Shown here in pieces: positions 22,876-64,000 of a stretch of DNA of 64,000 nt. A program made the position numbers and the translations under genes. Below the pieces are notes generated by a model, which saw nothing but the letters and a program-made list of their open reading frames with translations, had not been told where the DNA came from and ran no database searches. Each line of letters begins with the position of its first letter. Position 1 is the first letter of the stretch. The stretch comes from Candidatus Omnitrophota bacterium (GTDB taxonomy: Bacteria; Omnitrophota; Gorgyraeia; Ghiorseimicrobiales; Ghiorseimicrobiaceae), in the NCBI GenBank assembly GCA_030681595.1, contig JAUXSB010000061.1:69392-133391 (forward strand), in the 5' to 3' direction.

Positions 22876-23008
22876 GCGGCTTTGGCAAATTGCGCGCCAA
22901 ACCACTGCCCTCTGGCTTGCGGCTTTGGCTATGTGGAAAGCCAAACCACTGCCCTCTGGCTTGCGGCTTTGGCTATGTGGAAAGCCAAACCACTGCCCTC
23001 TGGCTTGT
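22876..23008. repeat. tandem array (about three units of 44 bp) of a palindromic element, repeat family A
   Basis: GCGGCTTTGGCTATGTGGAAAGCCAAACCACTGCCCTCTGGCTT repeated head-to-tail; the first copy is degenerate. Core hairpin GGCTTT-N10-AAAGCC. Dispersed single copies are at 39154, 41202 and 46050. Confidence 0.85.
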
Positions 23009-23183
23009 AAATTAACTAACTCGTTTTTCCGCCGAAGGCGGATCCGCCTACGGCGGAAGACACCCCCGAGGTGGCCGGAAGGACTCCTCGGGGGTGGCCC
23101 GCCCGAACGACCACTGGTCGGGCGCGGCGAAGCTTGGTTATTCGGGAAAATCGCTGAACCGGTGTCAAAAATCGGTGACACCG

Positions 23184-39153: not shown

Positions 39154-39197
39154 GGCTTTGGCTAAGCGGAAAGCCAAACCACTGCCTTACCGGCTTA
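39154..39197. repeat. repeat family A, single intergenic copy
   Basis: GGCTTTGGCTAAGCGGAAAGCCAAACCACTGCCTTACCGGCTT between etfB and atpC. It matches the 44-bp unit of the 22876-23008 array. Confidence 0.8.
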
Positions 39198-39262
39198 TAC
39201 CTTTGTTATTATTTTCACACACTTTGGTAAATTTTTAGGTATATCATATTATATTATGCTTG

Positions 39263-40934
<1,672 letters not shown>

Positions 40935-41831
40935 TTAACCTTTCAAAAGTTCCGCAGCACTTGATACTTCAATTATTTCCTTGGTAATTGAAGCCTGCCG
41001 CGCCTTATTCCTTAATAATGTAAGGCTATCAATCATGGTTTCTGCGTTATCCGTAGCCGCCTTCATCGCGATCATCCTTGCTGAGTGCTCCGAAGTAAAG
41101 GCGTTTAAAAGTATCGCGCGCATTTTGGCAGAGATGTATCTTGGGATTAAGTCTTCCAAAATCCTCTCTCTTGAAGGCTCCAAGATATATTCTATCTCTT
41201 CGGCTTTGGCTATATTGAAAGCCAAACCACTGCCCCTCTGGCTTGCGGCTTTGGCGCGTTCAATATTTAAAAATTTCTCTAACGTCGGCTTATATTTTAA
41301 GGCGGAGATAAAATGCGTATAAATAATATAAACTTCATCGGCCTCTTTTGACAAAAACAGCCGTGTAAGAGTATTTGCGATTTCATCAGAAATGTTTTTA
41401 GAAAATACCCCCTGTAAACCGACATACGAATGTAAAATATGAAAATCGCGTTTCTTAAAATAACTAAAGGCTTTCTTACCGACAGTAATAAGTTTTATTT
41501 TTTCTTTTCCTTGGCCGCGGATAAATTGCTCGCAAAGACGGATAATATTATCGTTATAGGTACTAGATAGCCCGGTATCGGAGGTAATCACACAAAGCGC
41601 AGTATTGTTTTTGGGCCTTTCCTCTAAAAACGGGTGTACCGCGACATCTATCCCGCAAAGAAGGTTTTTAAACATCGCTTCTAATTTTAGAAAATATGCG
41701 TTGCCCGCGCGTAAAACCGCCTCACTTTTTTTAAGTTTGGCACCCGAGACCATCTCCATTGCCCGCGTAATCTTCTTGGTGTTTTCTACGCTTCTAATCC
41801 TTCTTTTTATAGTCCTTAGTGATTGGAGCAT
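40935..41831 (-). CDS. atpG: F1 ATP synthase gamma subunit (carries an in-frame repeat-family-A insertion)
   Basis: 298 aa. N-terminus IKRRIRSVENTKKITRAMEMVSGAKL and C-terminus ITKEIIEVSSAAELLKG are canonical gamma. Confidence 0.85.
   Translation of the reverse strand: MLQSLRTIKRRIRSVENTKKITRAMEMVSGAKLKKSEAVLRAGNAYFLKLEAMFKNLLCGIDVAVHPFLEERPKNNTALCVITSDTGLSSTYNDNIIRLCEQFIRGQGKEKIKLITVGKKAFSYFKKRDFHILHSYVGLQGVFSKNISDEIANTLTRLFLSKEADEVYIIYTHFISALKYKPTLEKFLNIERAKAASQRGSGLAFNIAKAEEIEYILEPSRERILEDLIPRYISAKMRAILLNAFTSEHSARMIAMKAATDNAETMIDSLTLLRNKARQASITKEIIEVSSAAELLKG
41202..41257. repeat. repeat family A copy inserted in-frame inside atpG
   Basis: GGCTTTGGCTATATTGAAAGCCAAACCACTGCCCCTCTGGCTTGCGGCTTTGGCGCG. 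On the atpG strand it translates to ERAKAASQRGSGLAFNIAKAEE. Confidence 0.85.
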
Positions 41832-46049: not shown

Positions 46050-46091
46050 GGCTTTGGCTATATTGAAAGCCAAACCACTGCCTTCTCGCTT
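46050..46091. repeat. repeat family A, single intergenic copy
   Basis: GGCTTTGGCTATATTGAAAGCCAAACCACTGCCTTCTCGCTTG between nuoN and the atp operon. Confidence 0.8.
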
Positions 46092-46251
46092 GAAAGACGG
46101 CTTCCCCTTCGGGGCCGGATGCTTTTGGGCTGCGATTGCGTCGTTCGTCCTTGGCGTAGTGCATTGACTACGCCGGCGTCCTCACTCCTTATCTCGCTCC
46201 AAAATCCTTACGGCCAAAGCTTCCATTATTTATACGTAGGTCAGTTCTCAA

Positions 46252-55904: not shown

Positions 55905-55973
55905 ATGTTTGAGATGCTATTACTTCTAGAATTGCAGAAAAATCAAGCCGCTTTCTACGGCTCGTTAAAAAGA

Positions 55974-56211
55974 TGGCGGGGACGACGGGATTTTTTCTCC
56001 CCTGAACCGACATTCGTCGGCTCTCCTCCGCAACCGGCCGCCCTCGCTTGAACCAGTGGCGCTCGGGTCGGCTTCAAATCCCTGAGAAAAATCTGGCGGG
56101 GACGACGGGATTTTTGCTCCCCTGAACCGACATTCGTCGGCTCTCCTCCGCAACCGGCCGCCCTCGCTTGAACCAGTGGCGCTCGGGTCGGCTTCAAATC
56201 CCTTAAAAATA
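55974..56211. repeat. two tandem units of about 119 bp, each carrying a copy of the tRNA-Asp 3' end
   Basis: Both units begin, in plus orientation, TGGCGGGGACGACGGGATTTTT, the reverse complement of the 3' roughly 21 nt of the adjacent tRNA-Asp. The remaining roughly 97 nt are about 98% identical between units and contain a CCGACGAATGTCGG hairpin. Confidence 0.8.
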
Positions 56212-56290
56212 TGGCGGGGACGACGGGATTTGAACCCGCGGTCTTCAGATCGACAATCTGACGCGTTAAACCAGACTACGCTACGTCCCC
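56212..56290 (-). tRNA. tRNA-Asp (anticodon GTC), CCA encoded
   Basis: Minus-strand sequence GGGGACGTAGCGTAGTCTGGTTTAACGCGTCAGATTGTCGATCTGAAGACCGCGGGTTCAAATCCCGTCGTCCCCGCCA folds as a cloverleaf. The anticodon stem TCAGA/TCTGA has loop TTGTCGA, giving GTC. The T-loop is TTCAAAT. Confidence 0.85.
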
Positions 56291-56425: not shown

Positions 56426-57151
56426 CTAATTTAAGCTCTTTAAAATTCTCTGAGTGGCTAAAGACGGGTCTTTTGCTTCTAATATTGGCCTACCGACGAC
56501 AATATAGTCAGAACCGGCTTTTGCTGCATCTTGAGGTGTGGCAATACGCTTTTGATCGCCTGAATCTACGCCTTTGGGCCTTATACCGGGGCTAACCACC
56601 ACTAAATCGCTGCCAAATTTTTCGCGGATAATCCCTGCCTCTTGAACTGAAGCCACTACGCCATCTAAGCCTGCTTCTCTTGCATTGCTTGTGAAAGAAA
56701 GCACAAGAGGCAATATTGTACTATTATTGATTTGGCTTGTCAAGACTGTAACTGCAATAATTAAAGGAGGTTTTATGCCTGCTTTAGATGCCTCTAAACA
56801 AGCTGCTTCCTTTGCCCTCTGCATCATTTCTATGCCGCCTTGAGCATGCACATTAAACATAAAAATTCCTAAACTTGTGGCGGAGGAAGCGGCGCCTGCC
56901 ACGGTGTTTGGGATGTCATGGAATTTCAGATCTAAAAACACCTTCGCCCCTTTTTTATGTACCATTTCTACGGCGCCTGGTCCGTAGAGGGTAAAAAGCT
57001 GTAACCCGATTTTAAAAATCTTTACTTGGGGGTAGAGTAAATCTATGAATTTTTCCGCTTTTTTAAGGCTGTCAACATCGAGGGCAACGATTAATTCGGG
57101 TTTCGCCAGCCCGATTTCAGTCTGGCGGGGATTTCGGGATTCGGGGTTCAT
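56426..57151 (-). CDS. pyrF: orotidine 5'-phosphate decarboxylase
   Basis: 241 aa with conserved motifs: LIVALD, KIGLQLF and FLDLKFHDIPNTV. Confidence 0.85.
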   Translation of the reverse strand: MNPESRNPRQTEIGLAKPELIVALDVDSLKKAEKFIDLLYPQVKIFKIGLQLFTLYGPGAVEMVHKKGAKVFLDLKFHDIPNTVAGAASSATSLGIFMFNVHAQGGIEMMQRAKEAACLEASKAGIKPPLIIAVTVLTSQINNSTILPLVLSFTSNAREAGLDGVVASVQEAGIIREKFGSDLVVVSPGIRPKGVDSGDQKRIATPQDAAKAGSDYIVVGRPILEAKDPSLATQRILKSLN

Positions 57152-58104
57152 TGAATTTCAATACTCCCAATTAAATTTTTTATATTGGATATTTTATGCT
57201 TGCGTATATACCCTTTAATACCTTCTATAATCTCGATACTTACGCGCGGATTTATAAAATTTGCTGTGCCGACCTCAACAGCAGTTGCTCCGGCAATAAT
57301 AAACTCTAAAGCGTCCTCGGCAGTCATTATCCCGCCGATACCGATCACCGGAATTTTTACCTTTTGCGCGGCTTCCCAGACCATACGCAGGGCAATCGGT
57401 TTTATCGCAGGCCCGCTTAAACCGCCGGTAATGTTGCCTAGCTTTGGCCTTCTACTATTAACATCAATACTCATTGCCAAAAATGTGTTTACTAACGATA
57501 CGCTGTCAGCCCCGGCATCTTCTGCCGCCTTAGCAATTTCAGCTATATCCGTAACATTAGGGGTGAGCTTGGCAATGATTACCCCTTTAGTCATCTTCCG
57601 CGCGGCCTTTACAACTCCATAAGTGGCTTTTTTGTCTTGAGATATTAATTGATTATTTTTCTGGTGACTGGCCTGTGCCCGCCAGGGTATGACTGGTGAC
57701 TGGTGACTTTTTAAATTCGGGCAGGACAAATTTAATTCCACAGCCAAGACACCTGCCGCATCTAATCGTTTCGCTAGCTCCGCGTATTCCGCGGCCCGCG
57801 CGCCGGCGATGCTTGCGATTACCTGCGTTTTTAATTTTCTTAAAAAGGGGAGTTTCTCGACAATAAAATGTTTCACGCCGTCATTCTCTAAACCGATAGA
57901 ATTAAGCATTCCGGACGGCGTCTCTACTACACGGGGGGGCGCATTTCCTTGACGGGGTTCTAAAGTGATAGTTTTGCTAATAACTGCGCCTATTTTATTT
58001 AAATCAACAAAGCCTTTAAACTCTTCGGTATAACCAAAAGTTCCGGAGGCAACTAAAACCGGATTTTTAAGTTTTAGCCCCCCCAAACAAACTGCTATAC
58101 TCAT
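57148..58104 (-). CDS. pyrD: dihydroorotate dehydrogenase catalytic subunit (class 1B), with an in-frame repeat-family-B insertion
   Basis: 318 aa. Conserved regions: NPVLVASGTFGY, ELNLSCPN, NITGGLSGPAIKP and GTANF. It is co-located with pyrK. Confidence 0.85.
   Translation of the reverse strand: MSIAVCLGGLKLKNPVLVASGTFGYTEEFKGFVDLNKIGAVISKTITLEPRQGNAPPRVVETPSGMLNSIGLENDGVKHFIVEKLPFLRKLKTQVIASIAGARAAEYAELAKRLDAAGVLAVELNLSCPNLKSHQSPVIPWRAQASHQKNNQLISQDKKATYGVVKAARKMTKGVIIAKLTPNVTDIAEIAKAAEDAGADSVSLVNTFLAMSIDVNSRRPKLGNITGGLSGPAIKPIALRMVWEAAQKVKIPVIGIGGIMTAEDALEFIIAGATAVEVGTANFINPRVSIEIIEGIKGYIRKHKISNIKNLIGSIEIQ
57661..57707. repeat. repeat family B copy (47 bp) inserted in-frame inside pyrD
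   Basis: CTGGTGACTGGCCTGTGCCCGCCAGGGTATGACTGGTGACTGGTGAC encodes [16 protein letters not shown] on the pyrD strand. It is 46/47 identical to 63381-63427 inside carB. Confidence 0.9.
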
Positions 58105-58374
58105 TTAACGTACAATTATCTGCAGCATTATCACCAAAGCTAAAATAACCACGATTATGCCGATCATTTTGCTTTTCCTAGCAAGCCAATCATCGCTTTG
58201 CACTTCTTTATCTAATGCCTGCTGGATCTTCTCTAGTACAAAGAATTTCTTATTTAATGCTTCGCTTAATTTCTGTAGCGCTGCCGGCTTAAAAATAAAA
58301 ATCATGCCTAATATAAACCCCATGGCCGCGGTAATAATTGATACGGGCAGAACCAACGCTTCTAAAACATCCAT
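58105..58374 (-). CDS. small two-TM membrane protein, hypothetical
   Basis: 89 aa ORF between pyrK and pyrD with two hydrophobic helices. No recognisable family. Confidence 0.4.
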   Translation of the reverse strand: MDVLEALVLPVSIITAAMGFILGMIFIFKPAALQKLSEALNKKFFVLEKIQQALDKEVQSDDWLARKSKMIGIIVVILALVIMLQIIVR

Positions 58375-58482
58375 AAATCCCTCCTTTTCTAATGACCTAT
58401 TTTGAACCTATTTTGTATAATATTATACCATACAGATTATTGAAATGCTTATAAATATCTTTAACCGGCTGCGGCTTTTTTC

Positions 58483-59364
58483 TTATGGCAATAACTCTTC
58501 CGTGTTGAATACCGGCCCTTCTTTACAGACGTATTTATAGCCGTTTTTTGTTTGAACCACACATCCAAGGCAAGCGCCAAAACCACAGGCCATATATTCT
58601 TCCAATGAAACCCACGCAGGAATATGATAACATTCCGCGAGCCTGGTGATTTCTTTTAACATCGGCTTTGGGCCGCAAGCGTAAACTACCGCCGCAGGCT
58701 GCAAGCTGCAGGCTGCAAGCTGCTTTTTATTTTTGCCTGTAGCCTGCTTGTGCCCGTAAGGGTATAGCCTGCCTGTGCCCGTAAGGGTATAGCCTGTAGC
58801 TAATATTTCTTCTAAAAGTTCAGTAATCCTTCCCTTAAAACCATGCGAGCCATCGTCTGTAGCTATTTTAACATCGCAACCGAGGTTTTTAAACTCTTTT
58901 TCGCATGAGACCTGTTCTTTTGTCCTTGCGCCGAGCAACACTGCGATCTCGAAGTTCGATATTCGAGGTTCGATGCTTCTTAGTTTCTCCGCCAGAAAAG
59001 TTAATGGAGCGACACCCATTCCCCCTGCTACTATTATCGCCCTTCGCCCTTCGCCCTTCGCCCTTCGTAAGTCAAATCCATTCCCCAGCGGGCCAATCAC
59101 ATCTAAATATTCCCCTGCTTTTTTCTTTGATAAAATCTCTGTGCCTTTACCCTTTATTTCATAAAAAATCTCTATCTCTTTGCCGATTACGCGATGGATG
59201 CTAAATGGACGCCGCAATAACGGTTCATAATCATCGCTTATTCTCGCCATTACAAACTGCCCCGGTAAAGCTTCCCCAGCAATCTTCGGCGCCTCTAACC
59301 TTATCTTAAAATACTTTTGGCCGATTTTCTTATTAGATATAATTTTAACTTTTACGCAGAACAT
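58483..59364 (-). CDS. pyrK: dihydroorotate dehydrogenase electron-transfer subunit (FAD/2Fe-2S), with in-frame repeat insertions
   Basis: 293 aa. PyrK-type N-terminus (FKIRLEAP...PGQFVMAR), RRPFSI, and the C-terminal Cys cluster ACGFGACLGCVV. Confidence 0.8.
   Translation of the reverse strand: MFCVKVKIISNKKIGQKYFKIRLEAPKIAGEALPGQFVMARISDDYEPLLRRPFSIHRVIGKEIEIFYEIKGKGTEILSKKKAGEYLDVIGPLGNGFDLRRAKGEGRRAIIVAGGMGVAPLTFLAEKLRSIEPRISNFEIAVLLGARTKEQVSCEKEFKNLGCDVKIATDDGSHGFKGRITELLEEILATGYTLTGTGRLYPYGHKQATGKNKKQLAACSLQPAAVVYACGPKPMLKEITRLAECYHIPAWVSLEEYMACGFGACLGCVVQTKNGYKYVCKEGPVFNTEELLP
58694..58800. repeat. composite repeat (family C) inserted in-frame in pyrK
   Basis: 2x GCAGGCTGCAAGCT, then a T-rich linker, then 2x AGCCTGC(C/T)TGTGCCCGTAAGGGTAT. 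It encodes ATGYTLTGTGRLYPYGHKQATGKNKKQLAACSLQPA. Its core CCTGTGCCCG..AGGGTAT is shared with family B. Confidence 0.8.
59034..59066. repeat. tandem heptanucleotide repeat (GCCCTTC x4) inside pyrK coding sequence
   Basis: CGCCCTTCGCCCTTCGCCCTTCGCCCTTCG encodes RRAKGEGRRA just before the FAD/NAD-binding AIIVAGGMG motif. Confidence 0.8.
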
Positions 59365-60034
59365 TTTCTTTCCTGCAGAATAAAATGCACAAGGTTATAA
59401 AAAATACGGCTGCCAATAAGAATTCCAGCGCTTCTTTCAAAAATTCGTTGCGCCCAAAAATCCTGATATCCTGCCAAGTTTCCAGCGCGATTATAATTAT
59501 AGACACCGCGATTAACGAAGACAGCTCTTTTTTAACCCAAGCCCACTTAAAAAACAAATAATCCCTGGGGTTTACTCTAAAGAAATTTTTATTAGGAAAA
59601 TATTTTGGCGTTTTTCTACAATAAGCCTTGTATTCTTCGCCGAAAAGCTGTAAAAGGCTATTTTCTTCTTTACGCACCTGCGGAGTATATATTACTAAAA
59701 AAATAAGTAGAAAGACTAAAAACGCCCACCACTGAAAAAGGATACTGACAGTCCCTAAACCAATCAACAAAGTCCCGAAATACATCGGGTGCCTAACTAA
59801 GCCATAAAGGCCGTCCAACATTAGGCTCCTTCCATTCCAAGATTTTTCTGACTTATACCCTCTTGCAACGACGCGAATCAAAAAACCAAATAAAAGCACA
59901 AATATTCCCAATATATCTAAAAATTCGTCTGCCGCTTCTCCCTTCCATCGTGGAAATAAAAACTTAGATAGGAACACCGCTGTCAAAACAGCCAAAAAAA
60001 TAGATATGCCTTGAGTTCTTATTCGTGGCTTCAC
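59345..60034 (-). CDS. isoprenylcysteine carboxyl methyltransferase (ICMT)/phospholipid methyltransferase family membrane protein
   Basis: 229 aa polytopic protein. LVRHPMYFGTLLIGLG is the ICMT/PEMT family motif. Confidence 0.65.
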   Translation of the reverse strand: MKPRIRTQGISIFLAVLTAVFLSKFLFPRWKGEAADEFLDILGIFVLLFGFLIRVVARGYKSEKSWNGRSLMLDGLYGLVRHPMYFGTLLIGLGTVSILFQWWAFLVFLLIFLVIYTPQVRKEENSLLQLFGEEYKAYCRKTPKYFPNKNFFRVNPRDYLFFKWAWVKKELSSLIAVSIIIIALETWQDIRIFGRNEFLKEALEFLLAAVFFITLCILFCRKENVLRKS

Positions 60035-60065
60035 ACCGTCATTCCTTTATTGTATTCACCTGCTA

Positions 60066-60866
60066 TTATTTTTGACATTTCGGACAAAAATATGTACCGC
60101 GCCCACCTAAGGCTATCCTTTTAACCAAAGCTTTGCAAACCAAACACGGTTTGCCCTCACGGCCATAAACCTTATGAAATTTTACATAGCCGCCGGGTTG
60201 TCCGGATACCTGCACATATTGATCAACCGAAGAACCTTTATGTTTTATCGCTTCTTTCAGCGTATCTTTTATTTCTTTAAAAAGCAGTGCTTTCTCTTTA
60301 TCGGATAAACTATTTGCTGCGCGTTCCGGATGAATTTTTGCCCGGAATAACGCCTCAGCCGCATAGATGTTACCGATTCCGGAAATAAATGTCTGATCCA
60401 TGATCAACGGCTTGATTTTAGTTTTTTTCGCTGAAAGCATTTCTTTAAATTGGCGCGCGGTTATATCAAACGGCTCAGGCCCAAGCCCCTGAACAAATTT
60501 TAACGCGCGCCAATCATCTATTAGCCGCAGTTCCGCAAAGAGCCGCTGGTCATTAAAATCAAGATTTTTACCGTCTGATAAATGAAAACTAACCCTTGTG
60601 GATTGTCCGCTCCCCGGATAAACTAACTGCCCGGTCATTTTTAAATGAATTGCCAATGATTTCCCGTTAGATAATTCTAGAATCAAAAGCTTTGCGCGAC
60701 GTAAGATATTTTTTATCGTTAAACCGGACAGCTCTTTTTTAAATTTATCCGGCGATGGCTCACGAATTACCTTAGGATTATGCACAGTTACACCTGTGAT
60801 TTTTTTACCTAGCGCTACCTTCTCTAGCTCGCGCTTTATTATCTCTACTTCTGGTAGTTCCGGCAA
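60066..60866 (-). CDS. mutM: formamidopyrimidine-DNA glycosylase (Fpg/MutM)
   Basis: 266 aa. N-terminal MPELPEVE (catalytic Pro2/Glu3) and a C-terminal zinc finger (CLVCKALVKRIALGGRGTYFCPKCQ). Confidence 0.9.
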   Translation of the reverse strand: MPELPEVEIIKRELEKVALGKKITGVTVHNPKVIREPSPDKFKKELSGLTIKNILRRAKLLILELSNGKSLAIHLKMTGQLVYPGSGQSTRVSFHLSDGKNLDFNDQRLFAELRLIDDWRALKFVQGLGPEPFDITARQFKEMLSAKKTKIKPLIMDQTFISGIGNIYAAEALFRAKIHPERAANSLSDKEKALLFKEIKDTLKEAIKHKGSSVDQYVQVSGQPGGYVKFHKVYGREGKPCLVCKALVKRIALGGRGTYFCPKCQK

Positions 60867-60904
60867 TTTCTTATCTCCTTTTACTATCCGCTATACGCTA
60901 AACG

Positions 60905-61300
60905 CTATCCGCTGATAATTTTCACCCAAACTTCTCTTGACCTTGGGCCGTCGCCTTCACAAAAATATATCCCCTGCCAAGCTCCTAAAGCAAGACGGCC
61001 ATCTTCAATAAAAACATTTAGCGACTGACCGAATAAAGACGACTTTATATGGGCATCCGAATTTCCTTCGCCGTGAGAATAACCCGCGTTTTCTGGAATA
61101 AGTTTATTTAAGCTATTGATAATATCCTTTTGCACTGAAGGGTCGGCATTTTCATTAATCGCGAGGCCTGCGGTCGTATGCGGGCAAAAGATAAAACAGA
61201 CACCGTCTTTAATGCTACTTTTAGAAACTGCTGCTTCTATTTTATCCGTAATATCCACCAACTCAACCCGGCTGTTTGTCTTTATTTTAATTTTTTCCAT
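60905..61300 (-). CDS. yjbQ: YjbQ/UPF0047 family protein (secondary thiamine-phosphate synthase-like)
   Basis: 131 aa. The motifs [18 protein letters not shown] and [10 protein letters not shown] are diagnostic of YjbQ. Confidence 0.8.
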
Positions 61301-64000
61301 ATTTGTTACTTTTATTTTTGCATTTCTTAGCTCTTAGCTCTTCATTCTTAGTTCTGCTTTTATGGTATTCTTGCAATGACTTAACTTCTAATTTTTCTTT
61401 TAGTAAAGTTTCAATCCCTGTAACTGATGCCTGTGCTCCCGGTATAGTGGTGATACAAGGCACCTGATGCATTATCGCGTAAGAGCGGATTTTTACCTCG
61501 TCAGCGCGAGGGATTCTACCCGAAGGTGTATTAATAATCAATTTTATCTTATTTTCTTTTAATAAATCCAAGGTGTTCGGCGAGCCTTCGCCAAGTTTTT
61601 TAATTAAGCCTACGGGGATTTTATTCTCGGATAAAAATTTATGCGTGCCGAAGCTCGCAACAATTTTAAATCCGAATCCGCGTAATTTTCTGACAACCCC
61701 GATAAGCACCTCTGTCTTATCGCTATCCTTGACACTAATAAAAACCAGCCCTTTAACGGGCAAATTCTGCCCGGCAGCCAGCTGGCTTTTTAAAAATGCC
61801 CTGCCAAAATCTTTATCAATACCCATTACCTCACCGGTAGATTTCATCTCCGGCCCCAACATAATATCCACTCCCGGAAAACGGCTAAAAGGAAATACGG
61901 ATTCTTTAACACAGGAATATTTCGGAATAATTTCTTTGGTAAATCCTAACTTTTTAAGCTTTGCCCCAGCCATTACTTTGGCAGCGAGTTTTGCCAAGGG
62001 CACGCCTATTGCCTTTGAAACAAATGGTACTGTGCGCGAGGCACGCGGGTTAACCTCCAAGATATATAATCTATCGCCTTTTACCGCGTATTGCGCGTTC
62101 ATTAAGCCGATAACATTTAACTCTCTGGCCATGGCAACACTTGCCTGCCTAATTTCATTAATCATTTTTTCTGACAAGCTGTGCGGCGGAAGCACCATTG
62201 CCGCATCTCCTGAATGTACTCCAGCCTCCTCAATATGCTCTAAGATTCCGCCTACGACAAAAGTTTGGCCGTCGGCAATCATATCCACATCCACCTCTAT
62301 GGCGTCTTCTAAAAACTTATCTATTAAAACCGGATGCTCGCCGGATACGGAAATCGCTTCCTTAATATATTTCTCCAAAATATTTTCCGCATAAACAATC
62401 TCCATTGCCCGGCCGCCTAAAACATATGATGGCCTGACTAAAACCGGATACCCTATGCGCTGTGCCACTTTTTTTGCTTCTTCCAACGTAAATGCCGTGC
62501 CGTTTTCCGGTTGCGCAAGCTTTAGCTTATTTAAAAACTGCTTAAATTTTTCCCGGTCTTCAGCGATATCTATGGATTTGGGACTAGTGCCGATAATCTT
62601 AACCCCTGCCTTTTCTAAAGCAAGTGCTAAATTTAACGGGGTCTGTCCCCCAAACTGCACAATTACCCCATCAGGTTTTTCCTTATCACAAATATTTAAA
62701 ACATCTTCCAAGGTAAGCGGCTCAAAATATAATTTATCTGAAGTATCATAATCAGTAGATACTGTTTCAGGATTAGAATTTACCATGATAGTTTCAAAAC
62801 CGTCTTCTTTTAGCGCAAAAGAAGCGTGCACACAACAATAATCAAACTCAATACCCTGCCCAATACGATTTGGCCCGCCGCCTAAGATCATTATTTTCTT
62901 CTTTGTGGATATGCGCGCCTCATCTTCTCTTTCATAAGTTGAATAAAAATAAGGCGTATAGGCCTCAAATTCCGCGGCACAAGTATCTACCAACTTATAA
63001 CTTGCCGTGATATTAAGCGTTTTCCTTAAAGTGCGGATTGCTTGTTCGTCGCTTGCCAAAAATTCCGCCAATTGCTTATCGGAAAAACCAAACTGTTTGG
63101 CTTTGAGTAACAACTCCGGCTTCAGATTACAAGCTTCAGGCTGCAGGCTTTTAACTTCTTTATTTTCAGCTTGTGGCTTGCAGCTTGCCTGCCCCGAAGA
63201 AAGCGGGGCAGCTTGCAGCTTAATTTCTTTCTCCAAATCAACAATCTCTTTTATATTCTGTAAAAACCATCTGTCTATCTTACTTAAACTGTATATTTCC
63301 TCAATTTCCATTCCTGCGCGTAAAGCATCTCCAATATAGAAAACTCTTTCCGCTGTAGGCACCCTCAATCTTTCTTTTAACTGGTGACTGGCCTGTACCC
63401 GCCAGGGTATGACTGGTGACTGGTGACTAATAGTTTCTAAACCGCTCTTTTTTATTTCCAAACCTCGTAAACCTTTTTGCAAAGCCTCTTTAAATGTGCG
63501 GCCAATGCTCATTGTCTCACCCACAGACTTCATTGAGGTACCTAATACCGGGCTTGAGCCGGGGAATTTCTCAAAGGTAAAACGCGGAATTTTAACCACG
63601 CAATAATCTATTGTTGGCTCAAAACAAGCCGGCGTCTCTTTCGTAATATCATTAGGAATTTCATCCAAAGTATAACCGACCGCAAGTTTTGCCGCGATTT
63701 TGGCAATAGGAAAACCTGTGGCTTTAGAAGCAAGGGCGGATGAGCGCGAAACACGCGGATTTAGCTCAATTACTACCATCCGTCCAGTATCCGGATGCAC
63801 CGCAAACTGGATATTGGAGCCGCCGGTTTCCACGCCGATTTCGCGCATTGCCTTAATTGAGGCATCACGCATAAGCTGATATTCACGGTCGGTTAAGGTC
63901 TGGGCCGGAGCTACTGTGATAGAATCACCGGTATGCACCCCCATAGGGTCAAAATTTTCAATAGAACAGACAATCACTACATTATCTTTTCTATCGCGCA
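61287..64000 (-). CDS. carB: carbamoyl-phosphate synthase large subunit (partial; N-terminus lies beyond the window), with two in-frame repeat insertions
   Basis: Two ATP-grasp CPSase halves, an oligomerisation linker ([17 protein letters not shown]) and a C-terminal MGS-like domain. The ORF stays open to the window edge. Confidence 0.85.
63143..63232. repeat. family-C-like palindromic repeat inserted in-frame in the carB linker region
   Basis: GCTTCAGGCTGCAGGCTT, then a T-rich linker, then CAGCTTGCCTGCCCCGAAGAAAGCGGGGCAGCTTGCAGCTT (an 8-bp-stem hairpin). It encodes [29 protein letters not shown]. Its GCAGGCTGCAAGCT-like motifs are shared with the pyrK insertion. Confidence 0.75.
63381..63427. 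repeat. repeat family B copy (47 bp) inserted in-frame inside carB
   Basis: CTGGTGACTGGCCTGTACCCGCCAGGGTATGACTGGTGACTGGTGAC encodes [16 protein letters not shown]. It is 46/47 identical to the pyrD copy. Confidence 0.9.

Follow-up and report, generated by a model that had tools for sequence, protein, structure and literature searches.

A 48-nt nested repeat read in frame in pyrD and carB of a Candidatus Omnitrophota genome

A 48-nt element occurs in two unrelated genes, pyrD and carB, in a 64,000-nt stretch of a metagenome-assembled genome (MAG) of Candidatus Omnitrophota bacterium (assembly GCA_030681595.1, contig JAUXSB010000061.1, positions 69,392 to 133,391 of the forward strand), which is referred to here as the window. 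The element is a composite of a heptanucleotide array and an 18-nt module nested within it. The interpretation that we favor, with a probability of roughly two in three, is that the element is a translated short repeat of nested structure, defined at the DNA level, which behaves like a Rickettsia palindromic element (RPE) but is neither an RPE nor a palindromic transposon; this estimate applies to the combined account, including the route by which the element would have been copied. The element is one example of a repeat system in the surface loops of Omnitrophota pyrimidine-synthesis enzymes, and this system combines features of heptamer repeats and of small dispersed repeats.

The shared element in pyrD and carB

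The initial annotation had reported two 47-mers with 46 of 47 positions identical, at 57661-57707 and 63381-63427. Both are present at exactly these positions on the + strand and differ by a single G/A; no match to such a pair appeared in 100 dinucleotide-preserving shuffles, and the chance expectation is 0. The true shared length is 48 nt, or 16 codons, of which 47 nt are identical, and the flanks of the two copies have nothing in common. Each copy is on the coding (−) strand within an intact open reading frame (ORF), namely a pyrD-type ORF at 57148-58104 or a carB-type ORF from 61287 to the end of the window. As had been claimed, both genes use the same frame for the element, giving a 16-residue peptide that ends in (A/V)QASHQ. 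On the coding strand of the 48-mer no frame contains a stop codon, and on the + strand every frame has a TGA.

All the ORFs of at least 200 aa in the window that look real are on the − strand, and the cumulative GC skew drops monotonically across 55-64 kb of the window. The genes therefore appear to be co-oriented with replication, so that the orientation of the repeat relative to transcription is inseparable from its orientation relative to replication.

Compared with L. lactis PyrDB (PDB 1ep1), the insert in PyrD is exactly 16 aa long and follows NLSCPNLK, which makes precise the earlier estimate of about 16 aa after NLSCPN. The insert begins five residues past the catalytic Cys of that motif, within the flexible active-site loop, and residues 130-150 have a predicted local distance difference test (pLDDT) score below 50 and no secondary structure in the AlphaFold2 model. 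The carB copy aligns to about residues 411-423 of E. coli CarB. This segment we take, from the published structure, to be the linker that joins the carboxyphosphate and oligomerisation domains. The location in surface loops that had been suggested is thus supported for both proteins by the comparison with structures and orthologues.

At the site of the carB copy, three relatives (L001, L008 and L010) have an ordinary segment of 8-12 aa which is free of arrays, and this indicates that the whole 48-nt composite was introduced into carB. The in-frame insertion described at the outset holds for pyrD, where 16 aa are added. However, the event in carB does not simply add 16 aa, because the net gain relative to the relatives is just 6-9 aa.

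Two other contigs contain the pyrD copy. One of them (L007) is an independent contig from a metagenome, belongs to the same species and has an identical pyrD including the element; the other (L011) is more distant, and its element has a 2-nt loop variant. This recurrence indicates that the pyrD copy is not an assembly artefact, and the objection that the two copies could be assembly chimeras fails for this copy. As a separate observation on L007, an ORF upstream of pyrD (933-1517) has an N-terminal part resembling an ABC permease that is fused to the PyrK C-terminus; this may reflect a contig that is chimeric upstream of pyrD or a real rearrangement.

Composite structure of the element

The first layer of the 48-mer is a 30-nt heptanucleotide array, (AGTCACC)x4.3 on the coding strand. 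The second layer is an 18-nt GC-rich module, TACCCTGGCGGG(C/T)ACAGG, which is placed inside one heptamer at AGTCA^CC. Four copies of the module occur in the window, compared to 0.07 expected, and all of them are on the coding strand, sit within heptamer arrays and fall within 57.6-63.4 kb, a span of 6 kb. The two copies outside the shared element belong to pyrK, at the third of its array sites, in the order GCTACAG GCTA(module)CAG GCTA(module)CAG GCTACAG GC, where the insertion point is GCTA^CAG (Table 1).

The reading frame of the module differs among the copies. It is read as VIPWRAQ in the shared element, and the pyrK modules occupy the other two frames, as YTLTGTG and LYPYGHK, so that all three frames are used. 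Because the module is read in different frames and orthologues are without the peptide, the identity lies at the DNA level and not at the protein level, which agrees with the earlier argument that the similarity is not inherited protein sequence. A conserved peptide motif as the origin of the module was ruled out on the same evidence of three frames.

The window 18-mer retains one arm, GGCACAGG, of perfect hairpin modules known in other lineages, and it is at most a vestigial palindrome. The modules in L015 and L016 are perfect small hairpins of the form CCTGCCTG-N5-CAGGCAGG. The canonical CCTGCC...GGCAGG module of the relatives was not found in the window. A scan of the GTDB genomes with a 21-nt core gave three matches (L004, L005 and L006), of which L006 is a true copy of the module, located in frame in recG of Omnitrophota UBA9636 and within an (AGTCACA) array. 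The other two, L004 from a Thainema cyanobacterium and L005, were rejected as copies, since they look like ordinary coding sequence (…HTLAGTG…) and have no heptamer array. A scan of the JGI metagenomes for the module returned a single contig, of the same species, which indicates that the exact module is rare in public data.

The repeat system across Omnitrophota

The census of repeat periods was made on 167 kb of Omnitrophota DNA, consisting of the window and six loci. It gave 19 perfect period-7 arrays, compared to none in the shuffles; periods 5, 6 and 8-12 gave 0-1, and period 4 gave three, which is the level of the shuffles. Complete period-7 arrays are typically 28-33 nt long, and those with a GC content of at least 0.35 are mostly inside ORFs, with one at the start of pyrF. 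The same repeat grammar appears in more than ten independent contigs (ENA, JGI, NCBI and Logan), and arrays with a heptamer of their own fill the same loops of PyrK (three sites), PyrD, PyrF, CarA and CarB in many Omnitrophota genomes. A literature search on Omnitrophota repeats or heptamers found nothing.

The syntenic relative L001 has 80% nucleotide identity to the window, and the segments of low identity coincide exactly with the array sites. At pyrK site 1, the array is (GTATCCC)4.4 in L001 and (GAAGGGC)4.4 in the window, with equal start and length. At pyrK site 2, a different degenerate array (NCAATAC) occupies the same place in L001, and the pyrD loop of L001 reads GGGGCAA GGGTTAA x2. 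Four relatives have four different arrays in the pyrD loop, and an "empty" form of the loop exists as well; the states in other genomes are included in Table 1. Most Omnitrophota PyrD orthologues have some heptamer array in this loop, and the pyrD site is therefore not a naive target.

The tabulation of loop lengths covered 107 PyrD orthologues and, varying with the site, 105-112 of 120 PyrK orthologues. The modes are 5, 12 and 25-26 aa in PyrD, 12, 19 and 26 aa at PyrK site 1, and 16, 23, 30 and 37 aa at PyrK site 2. The amino-acid identity within the loops at period 7 is 0.18-0.34, compared to 0.02-0.10 at most other periods. The loops change in steps of 7 aa, or 21 nt, because 21 is the lowest common multiple of 7 and 3, as expected of selection that preserves the reading frame.

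An octamer array, (CAAGGACA)x3, was observed at 372-430 of L015, a JGI Omnitrophota contig, at pyrK site 1 where others have heptamers. The secondary signal that the protein loops show at period 8 (0.119 in PyrD) is in agreement with it. AT-rich period-7 repeats (AATATTA, AAAAATA and TACTTTT) were also observed at 2124-2176 and 2680-2729 of the window, in intergenic DNA near a histidine-kinase gene, and these could be an AT-rich equivalent, outside genes, of the arrays in coding sequence.

Table 1. Arrays, modules and related repeats of the window, and states of the pyrD loop in the genomes compared.
Feature	Position	Strand	Description
Composite copy 1, pyrD active-site loop	57661-57708	−	AGTCACC AGTCACC AGTCA(18-nt module)CC AGTCACC AG; 16-residue peptide
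18-nt module of copy 1	57672-57689	−	TACCCTGGCGGGCACAGG; nested in heptamer array
Composite copy 2, carB linker between carboxyphosphate and oligomerisation domains	63381-63428	−	47/48 identical to copy 1; 16-residue peptide
18-nt module of copy 2	63392-63409	−	TACCCTGGCGGGTACAGG; sole difference C to T (coding strand), in short stem
pyrK site 1	59037-59067	−	perfect (GAAGGGC)x4.4
pyrK site 2	58930-58980 (approximate)	−	degenerate heptamer array (NTCGAAY units)
pyrK site 3, composite of 66 nt	58735-58800	−	30-nt (GCTACAG)x4.3 and two 18-nt modules TACCCTTACGGGCACA(G/A)G at 58772-58789 and 58747-58764
Spacer and second array	58693-58734	−	directly downstream of pyrK site 3 composite; A-rich spacer AAAAATAAAAAG, then (CAGCTTG CAGCCTG)x2
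pyrF N-terminus	57095-57148	−	(AAACCCG)-type array and 24-nt hairpin module CGCCAGACTGAAATCGGGCTGGCG at 57104-57127; hairpin z −2.2
carB oligomerisation-domain loop	63115-63221	−	(AAGCTGC)x2, 21-nt hairpin module CCCGCTTTCTTCGGGGCAGGC (63187-63207), (AAGCTGC-type)x3, A-rich spacer, (AGCCTGN)x5
carB C-terminal extension, absent from relatives	61324-61355	−	heptamer array (CTAAGAG-type)
yjbQ stop codon and yjbQ-fpg spacer	60884-60913	.	30-nt heptamer array (CTATACG x4.3)
Second family, ~45 nt	22877-23010		three tandem 44-nt units
Second family, ~45 nt	39154-39199
Second family, ~45 nt	41202-41265
Second family, ~45 nt	46050-46095
pyrD loop, window and L011			(AGTCACC) array and 18-nt module
pyrD loop, L012			(GTATCAA) array and 21-nt module
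pyrD loop, L013			(GTGTCAA) array and 21-nt module
pyrD loop, L014			(GTGTCAA) array, module-free
pyrD loop, L009			"empty"

Gain, loss and transfer of arrays and modules

L013 and L014 represent the same species in two samples. They differ by two substitutions in 1628 nt and by one 21-nt indel that falls within a heptamer of the (GTGTCAA) array. No target-site duplication was found at this indel, which is a clean 21 nt with an ambiguity of 1 nt. The pyrF array is common to the window and L001, and its 24-nt module is present in the window only. Both differences indicate precise gain or loss of modules inside arrays that were already there. Modules of 18-24 nt, which are usually small hairpins, thus come and go without target duplication, and the heptamer arrays themselves turn over fast, such that their sequence differs even between close relatives. 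Selection retains only the states that preserve the frame and are free of stop codons.

Over the block that contains the pyrD element, the window and L011 are identical at 102 of 105 positions (97%), compared to 58 of 78 and 49 of 66 in the two flanks (74%). L012, although it is overall the closer relative, has a different array and module in the pyrD loop. A near-identical block with divergent flanks, together with the different content of L012, indicates patch-wise exchange or conversion of the segment that bears the element.

Proposed mechanism

The whole composite would have been copied recently between pyrD and carB, within a gene cluster of 6 kb; the identity of 47 of 48 nt and the three array-free carB relatives point to such recent copying. 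The likeliest route would be a template switch during replication or repair, or ectopic gene conversion, and not cut-and-paste by a transposase. Between genomes and strains, the element may spread as a short patch of homologous recombination through the conserved flanks. The encoded peptide probably forms a disordered loop that the protein tolerates and that has no separate function.

Removal of the segments by programmed translational bypass or by RNA excision was considered and rejected, because the coding strand is stop-free in every frame, the lengths are multiples of 3 and the loops step by 21 nt. Known bypass elements, such as those of T4 gene 60 and the mitochondrial byps, have an untranslatable gap, in which a stop comes after the take-off codon, and matching take-off and landing codons.

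Several points weigh against the proposed account. The counts for the source genome refer to the 64-kb window, beyond which lie the genome-wide copy number and the ratio of coding to intergenic copies. About 24-30 nt of ancestral carB sequence was replaced, and the event in carB is thus not a simple insertion. Both intergenic arrays are also about 30 nt long, with ~4.3 units, and selection on the reading frame alone therefore fails to explain the preference for about four units. All module copies have the same orientation relative to transcription; this weighs against a neutral model, for which a common orientation is unnecessary, given that the module by itself contains no stop in either direction. 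The pyr genes hold 21 of 26 arrays in 21% of the sampled sequence (p = 1e-10), which hints at targeting or function, although the loci were sampled around pyrD and this concentration may be biased. No copying intermediate, whether donor or acceptor, and no enzyme was identified, and the mechanism of copying is one that we infer. Ordinary translation of the segments is probable, judging by the conservation of the frame.

Alternative explanations

An Omnitrophota process that writes DNA or homogenises repeats, not described so far, might instead produce ~30-nt arrays from an arbitrary heptamer together with hairpin modules of ~21 nt, with a preference for pyrimidine-biosynthesis genes, and the arrays could then function as an antisense or lagging-strand hairpin or as a protein-binding repeat. 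Such a process would fit the arrays of equal length but different heptamer at the same site in close relatives, the ~4.3 units of the intergenic arrays and the single orientation of the modules. We regard it as improbable, though worth keeping in view.

It is unlikely, too, that the element is a classical non-autonomous transposable element, resembling an RPE or a miniature inverted-repeat transposable element (MITE), which a transposase from another part of the genome mobilises in trans and which inserts at random into genes, where selection keeps the copies that are in frame and stop-free. The near-identical dispersed copies in unrelated genes, the presence or absence of a module between L013 and L014, the occurrence of the same module in a third gene of another genome (recG) and an in-frame tolerance like that described for RPEs (PMC10969869) are what this explanation would lead one to expect. 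However, the palindromic character given to the element in the initial annotation did not survive the analysis. No inverted repeat of at least 8 nt was found in or around either copy of the 48-mer, and the single-stranded DNA (ssDNA) fold of the 48-mer is no better than shuffles on either strand (z −0.2 to −0.6); the sense RNA fold has a z of about 0. Terminal inverted repeats are absent, the ends of the element being direct repeats (AGTCACCAG ... AGTCACCAG), and the indel between L013 and L014 has no target-site duplication. In addition, the lengths of 18-48 nt are well under the size of a MITE or an RPE, the four copies in the window are clustered in 6 kb and always lie within heptamer arrays, and there is no transposase among the ten largest ORFs of the window. 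A further idea, that the double arrays form a long self-complementary hairpin in which array 2 is the reverse complement of array 1, is roughly true for the carB linker, but it fails in the pyrD of L003 and in the pyrK of the window, and it was rejected as a general rule.

Selection at the level of the nucleic acid is a more doubtful explanation again. The arrays and hairpin modules would then be functional cis-elements of the pyrimidine operon, acting as protein-binding heptamers or as a hairpin of antisense or lagging-strand RNA or ssDNA, and the peptide would be a by-product. The antisense (+) RNA of the 48-mer folds with a z of −2.2, which depends on G-U pairs, whereas the sense RNA does not. 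On the + strand, each of the three loop variants seen in the module has the form GNNA (GCCA, GATA and GTAA), and the difference between pyrD and carB changes a G-U pair into an A-U pair in the + strand RNA. These features are consistent with such a function, as are the concentration of arrays in pyr genes across relatives, the uniform orientation of the modules and the conservation of the element block at 97% against 74% in the flanks; regulatory roles have also been proposed for the heptamer repeats of Beggiatoaceae and Nostoc (PMC4679880; bioRxiv 10.1101/2022.06.06.494920). However, the heptamer differs at the same site between close relatives, the site is empty in some orthologues, no compensatory changes were seen in the stem, and the quantisation of lengths points to a constraint from the protein frame. 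The enrichment in pyr genes is possibly biased by the sampling of loci around pyrD. No Rfam family, PyrR included, was found for any of the elements at the gathering and E-value thresholds, and a scan for terminators and promoters around the elements gave nothing beyond the level of shuffles. A match to the Rfam family GIR1 at 22 bits, compared to a gathering score of 100, was discarded as noise.

Independent origin of the two copies, by polymerase slippage in situ at each site and convergence without copying, accounts for the appearance that arrays are locally generated or homogenised, since the same site has different heptamers in relatives, and slippage has been proposed for the over-representation of heptamers in work cited in PMC4679880 and PMC4692102; it is nevertheless effectively refuted, because the shared 48 nt include the non-repetitive 18-nt module at the same position in the same array, with 47 of 48 nt identical and a chance expectation of 0, and because the array is missing at that site from three carB relatives. 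An assembly artefact, with one repeat collapsed or chimerically joined into two genes, is conceivable for a MAG in which the support from independent assemblies covers the pyrD copy only, but it is extremely improbable given the two independent assemblies (L007 and L011) that contain that copy, the in-frame state of both ORFs with orthologue alignment on either side, and the repeat grammar in more than ten independent contigs.

Comparison with known elements

Heptanucleotide arrays are known as the short tandemly repeated repetitive (STRR) sequences of Calothrix and Nostoc and as the TAACTGA repeats of Beggiatoaceae, cyanobacteria and Bacteroidetes (PMC4679880). The GGGAATC/GGGGAYT repeats of Xanthomonas and Nostoc prefer about four units (PMC4692102), and the TAACTGA repeats have stops in all three frames in one orientation and are open in the reverse (PMC4679880). 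The Omnitrophota arrays resemble these repeats in having tandem 7-nt units in short arrays, an over-represented period of 7 and variability between close relatives. The core motif is also alike (the unit of the window is TGACTGG on the + strand, compared to TAACTGA), and the orientation rule is shared, with the + strand of the window closed by TGA and the − strand open. Repeats of the known families occur chiefly between genes, in many cases immediately before a start codon, with one or a few heptamers prevailing in any given genome. In contrast, the Omnitrophota arrays are mostly in frame inside housekeeping enzymes, involve many heptamers, are quantised at 21 nt and contain nested modules.

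The small dispersed repeats (SDRs) of Nostocaceae, which Elhai et al. are said to have described in 2008, are reportedly 21-27 nt long, often hairpins, precisely inserted, without classical transposon ends and nested in other repeats; they were reportedly described mainly outside genes, in cyanobacteria. We know of no enzyme that mobilises them. By this description, the modules of 18, 21 and 24 nt would be similar to SDRs, being present or absent at orthologous sites, as between L013 and L014 or in pyrF between the window and L001. The host differs, which is cyanobacteria for the SDRs and Omnitrophota here.

RPEs are palindromic elements of about 150 bp, specific to Rickettsia, which form ten families, each with a conserved peptide (PMC10969869). 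They are selfish repeats at the DNA level, located in frame in unrelated metabolic genes, and their peptide is compatible with the fold and function of the host protein (PMC10969869). The comparison with RPEs made in the initial annotation holds in part. The element is in frame in pyrD, carB and pyrK of the window and in recG of L006, with all the ORFs intact; it lies in loops or linkers, and only its coding orientation is stop-free. However, it is a nested composite of 48 nt (a 30-nt array and an 18-nt module), is not significantly palindromic, and its frame varies by copy; RPE-like size, hairpin, terminal inverted repeats and target-site duplication are lacking. The last two features, which characterise MITEs, are thus absent as well.

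Repetitive extragenic palindromic (REP) sequences are short (about 20-40 nt), GC-rich, imperfect hairpins with many dispersed copies, and the modules of L015 and L016 look REP-like. REPs are extragenic, commonly arranged as inverted doublets (REPINs) and linked to REP-associated tyrosine transposases (RAYTs), whereas the modules described here are intragenic and lie in heptamer arrays. No RAYT gene was seen in the part of the genome examined, and none of the window's ten largest ORFs resembles a transposase gene.

Other repeats of the window

The arrays of the window outside the shared element are listed in Table 1. In the carB oligomerisation-domain loop, the array segment corresponds to 25 aa more than in relatives.

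A second family of repeats, of ~45 nt, has six copies in the 64 kb. Each consists of a hairpin, GGCTTTGGC-N9-GCCAAA(G)CC, followed by ACTGCC(C)CTCTGGCTTGC. The copy at 41202-41265 is in frame in the gene of the ATP synthase gamma subunit (ORF 40935-41831), where it adds the peptide AKAASQRGSGLAFNIAKA, and the orthologue in L009 is about 9 aa shorter at this position. This family is a true hairpin and more like REPs and RPEs than the pyrD/carB element is.

A GC-rich unit of 120 nt is present as a tandem duplicate with 96% identity at 55967-56206 (−), directly 3' of tRNA-Asp (56212-56290). The final part of each unit is the tRNA-Asp 3' end (AAATCCCGTCGTCCCCGCCA), and next comes a terminator-like hairpin at 55944-55964. 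One unit is kept in L001 (11937-12056) at 92% identity, compared to a genome average of 80%. Its predicted fold is about −47 kcal/mol, and neither Rfam nor ARAGORN gave a call for it. The unit could be a tRNA-linked small RNA or the remnant of an integration site.

Conclusions

In practical terms, segments of this kind inflate apparent divergence and produce false indel "signatures", and they may mislead gene callers and phylogenies of Omnitrophota. Because public metagenomes contain both filled and empty alleles, one can measure directly at the read level how arrays and modules are gained, lost and turned over, and this could reveal the origin of the arrays.

If the proposed account is true, the element would be the second case, after the RPEs of Rickettsia and mechanistically different from them, of selfish short repeats inside essential enzymes, and the host setting is a free-living or epibiotic uncultured phylum. 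Microsatellite-like heptanucleotide arrays, which have long been noted in several bacterial phyla and are unexplained, would then not be limited to intergenic DNA. Under a strict 21-nt frame rule, such arrays would be able to fill protein loops, among them the flexible loop at the active site of dihydroorotate dehydrogenase.

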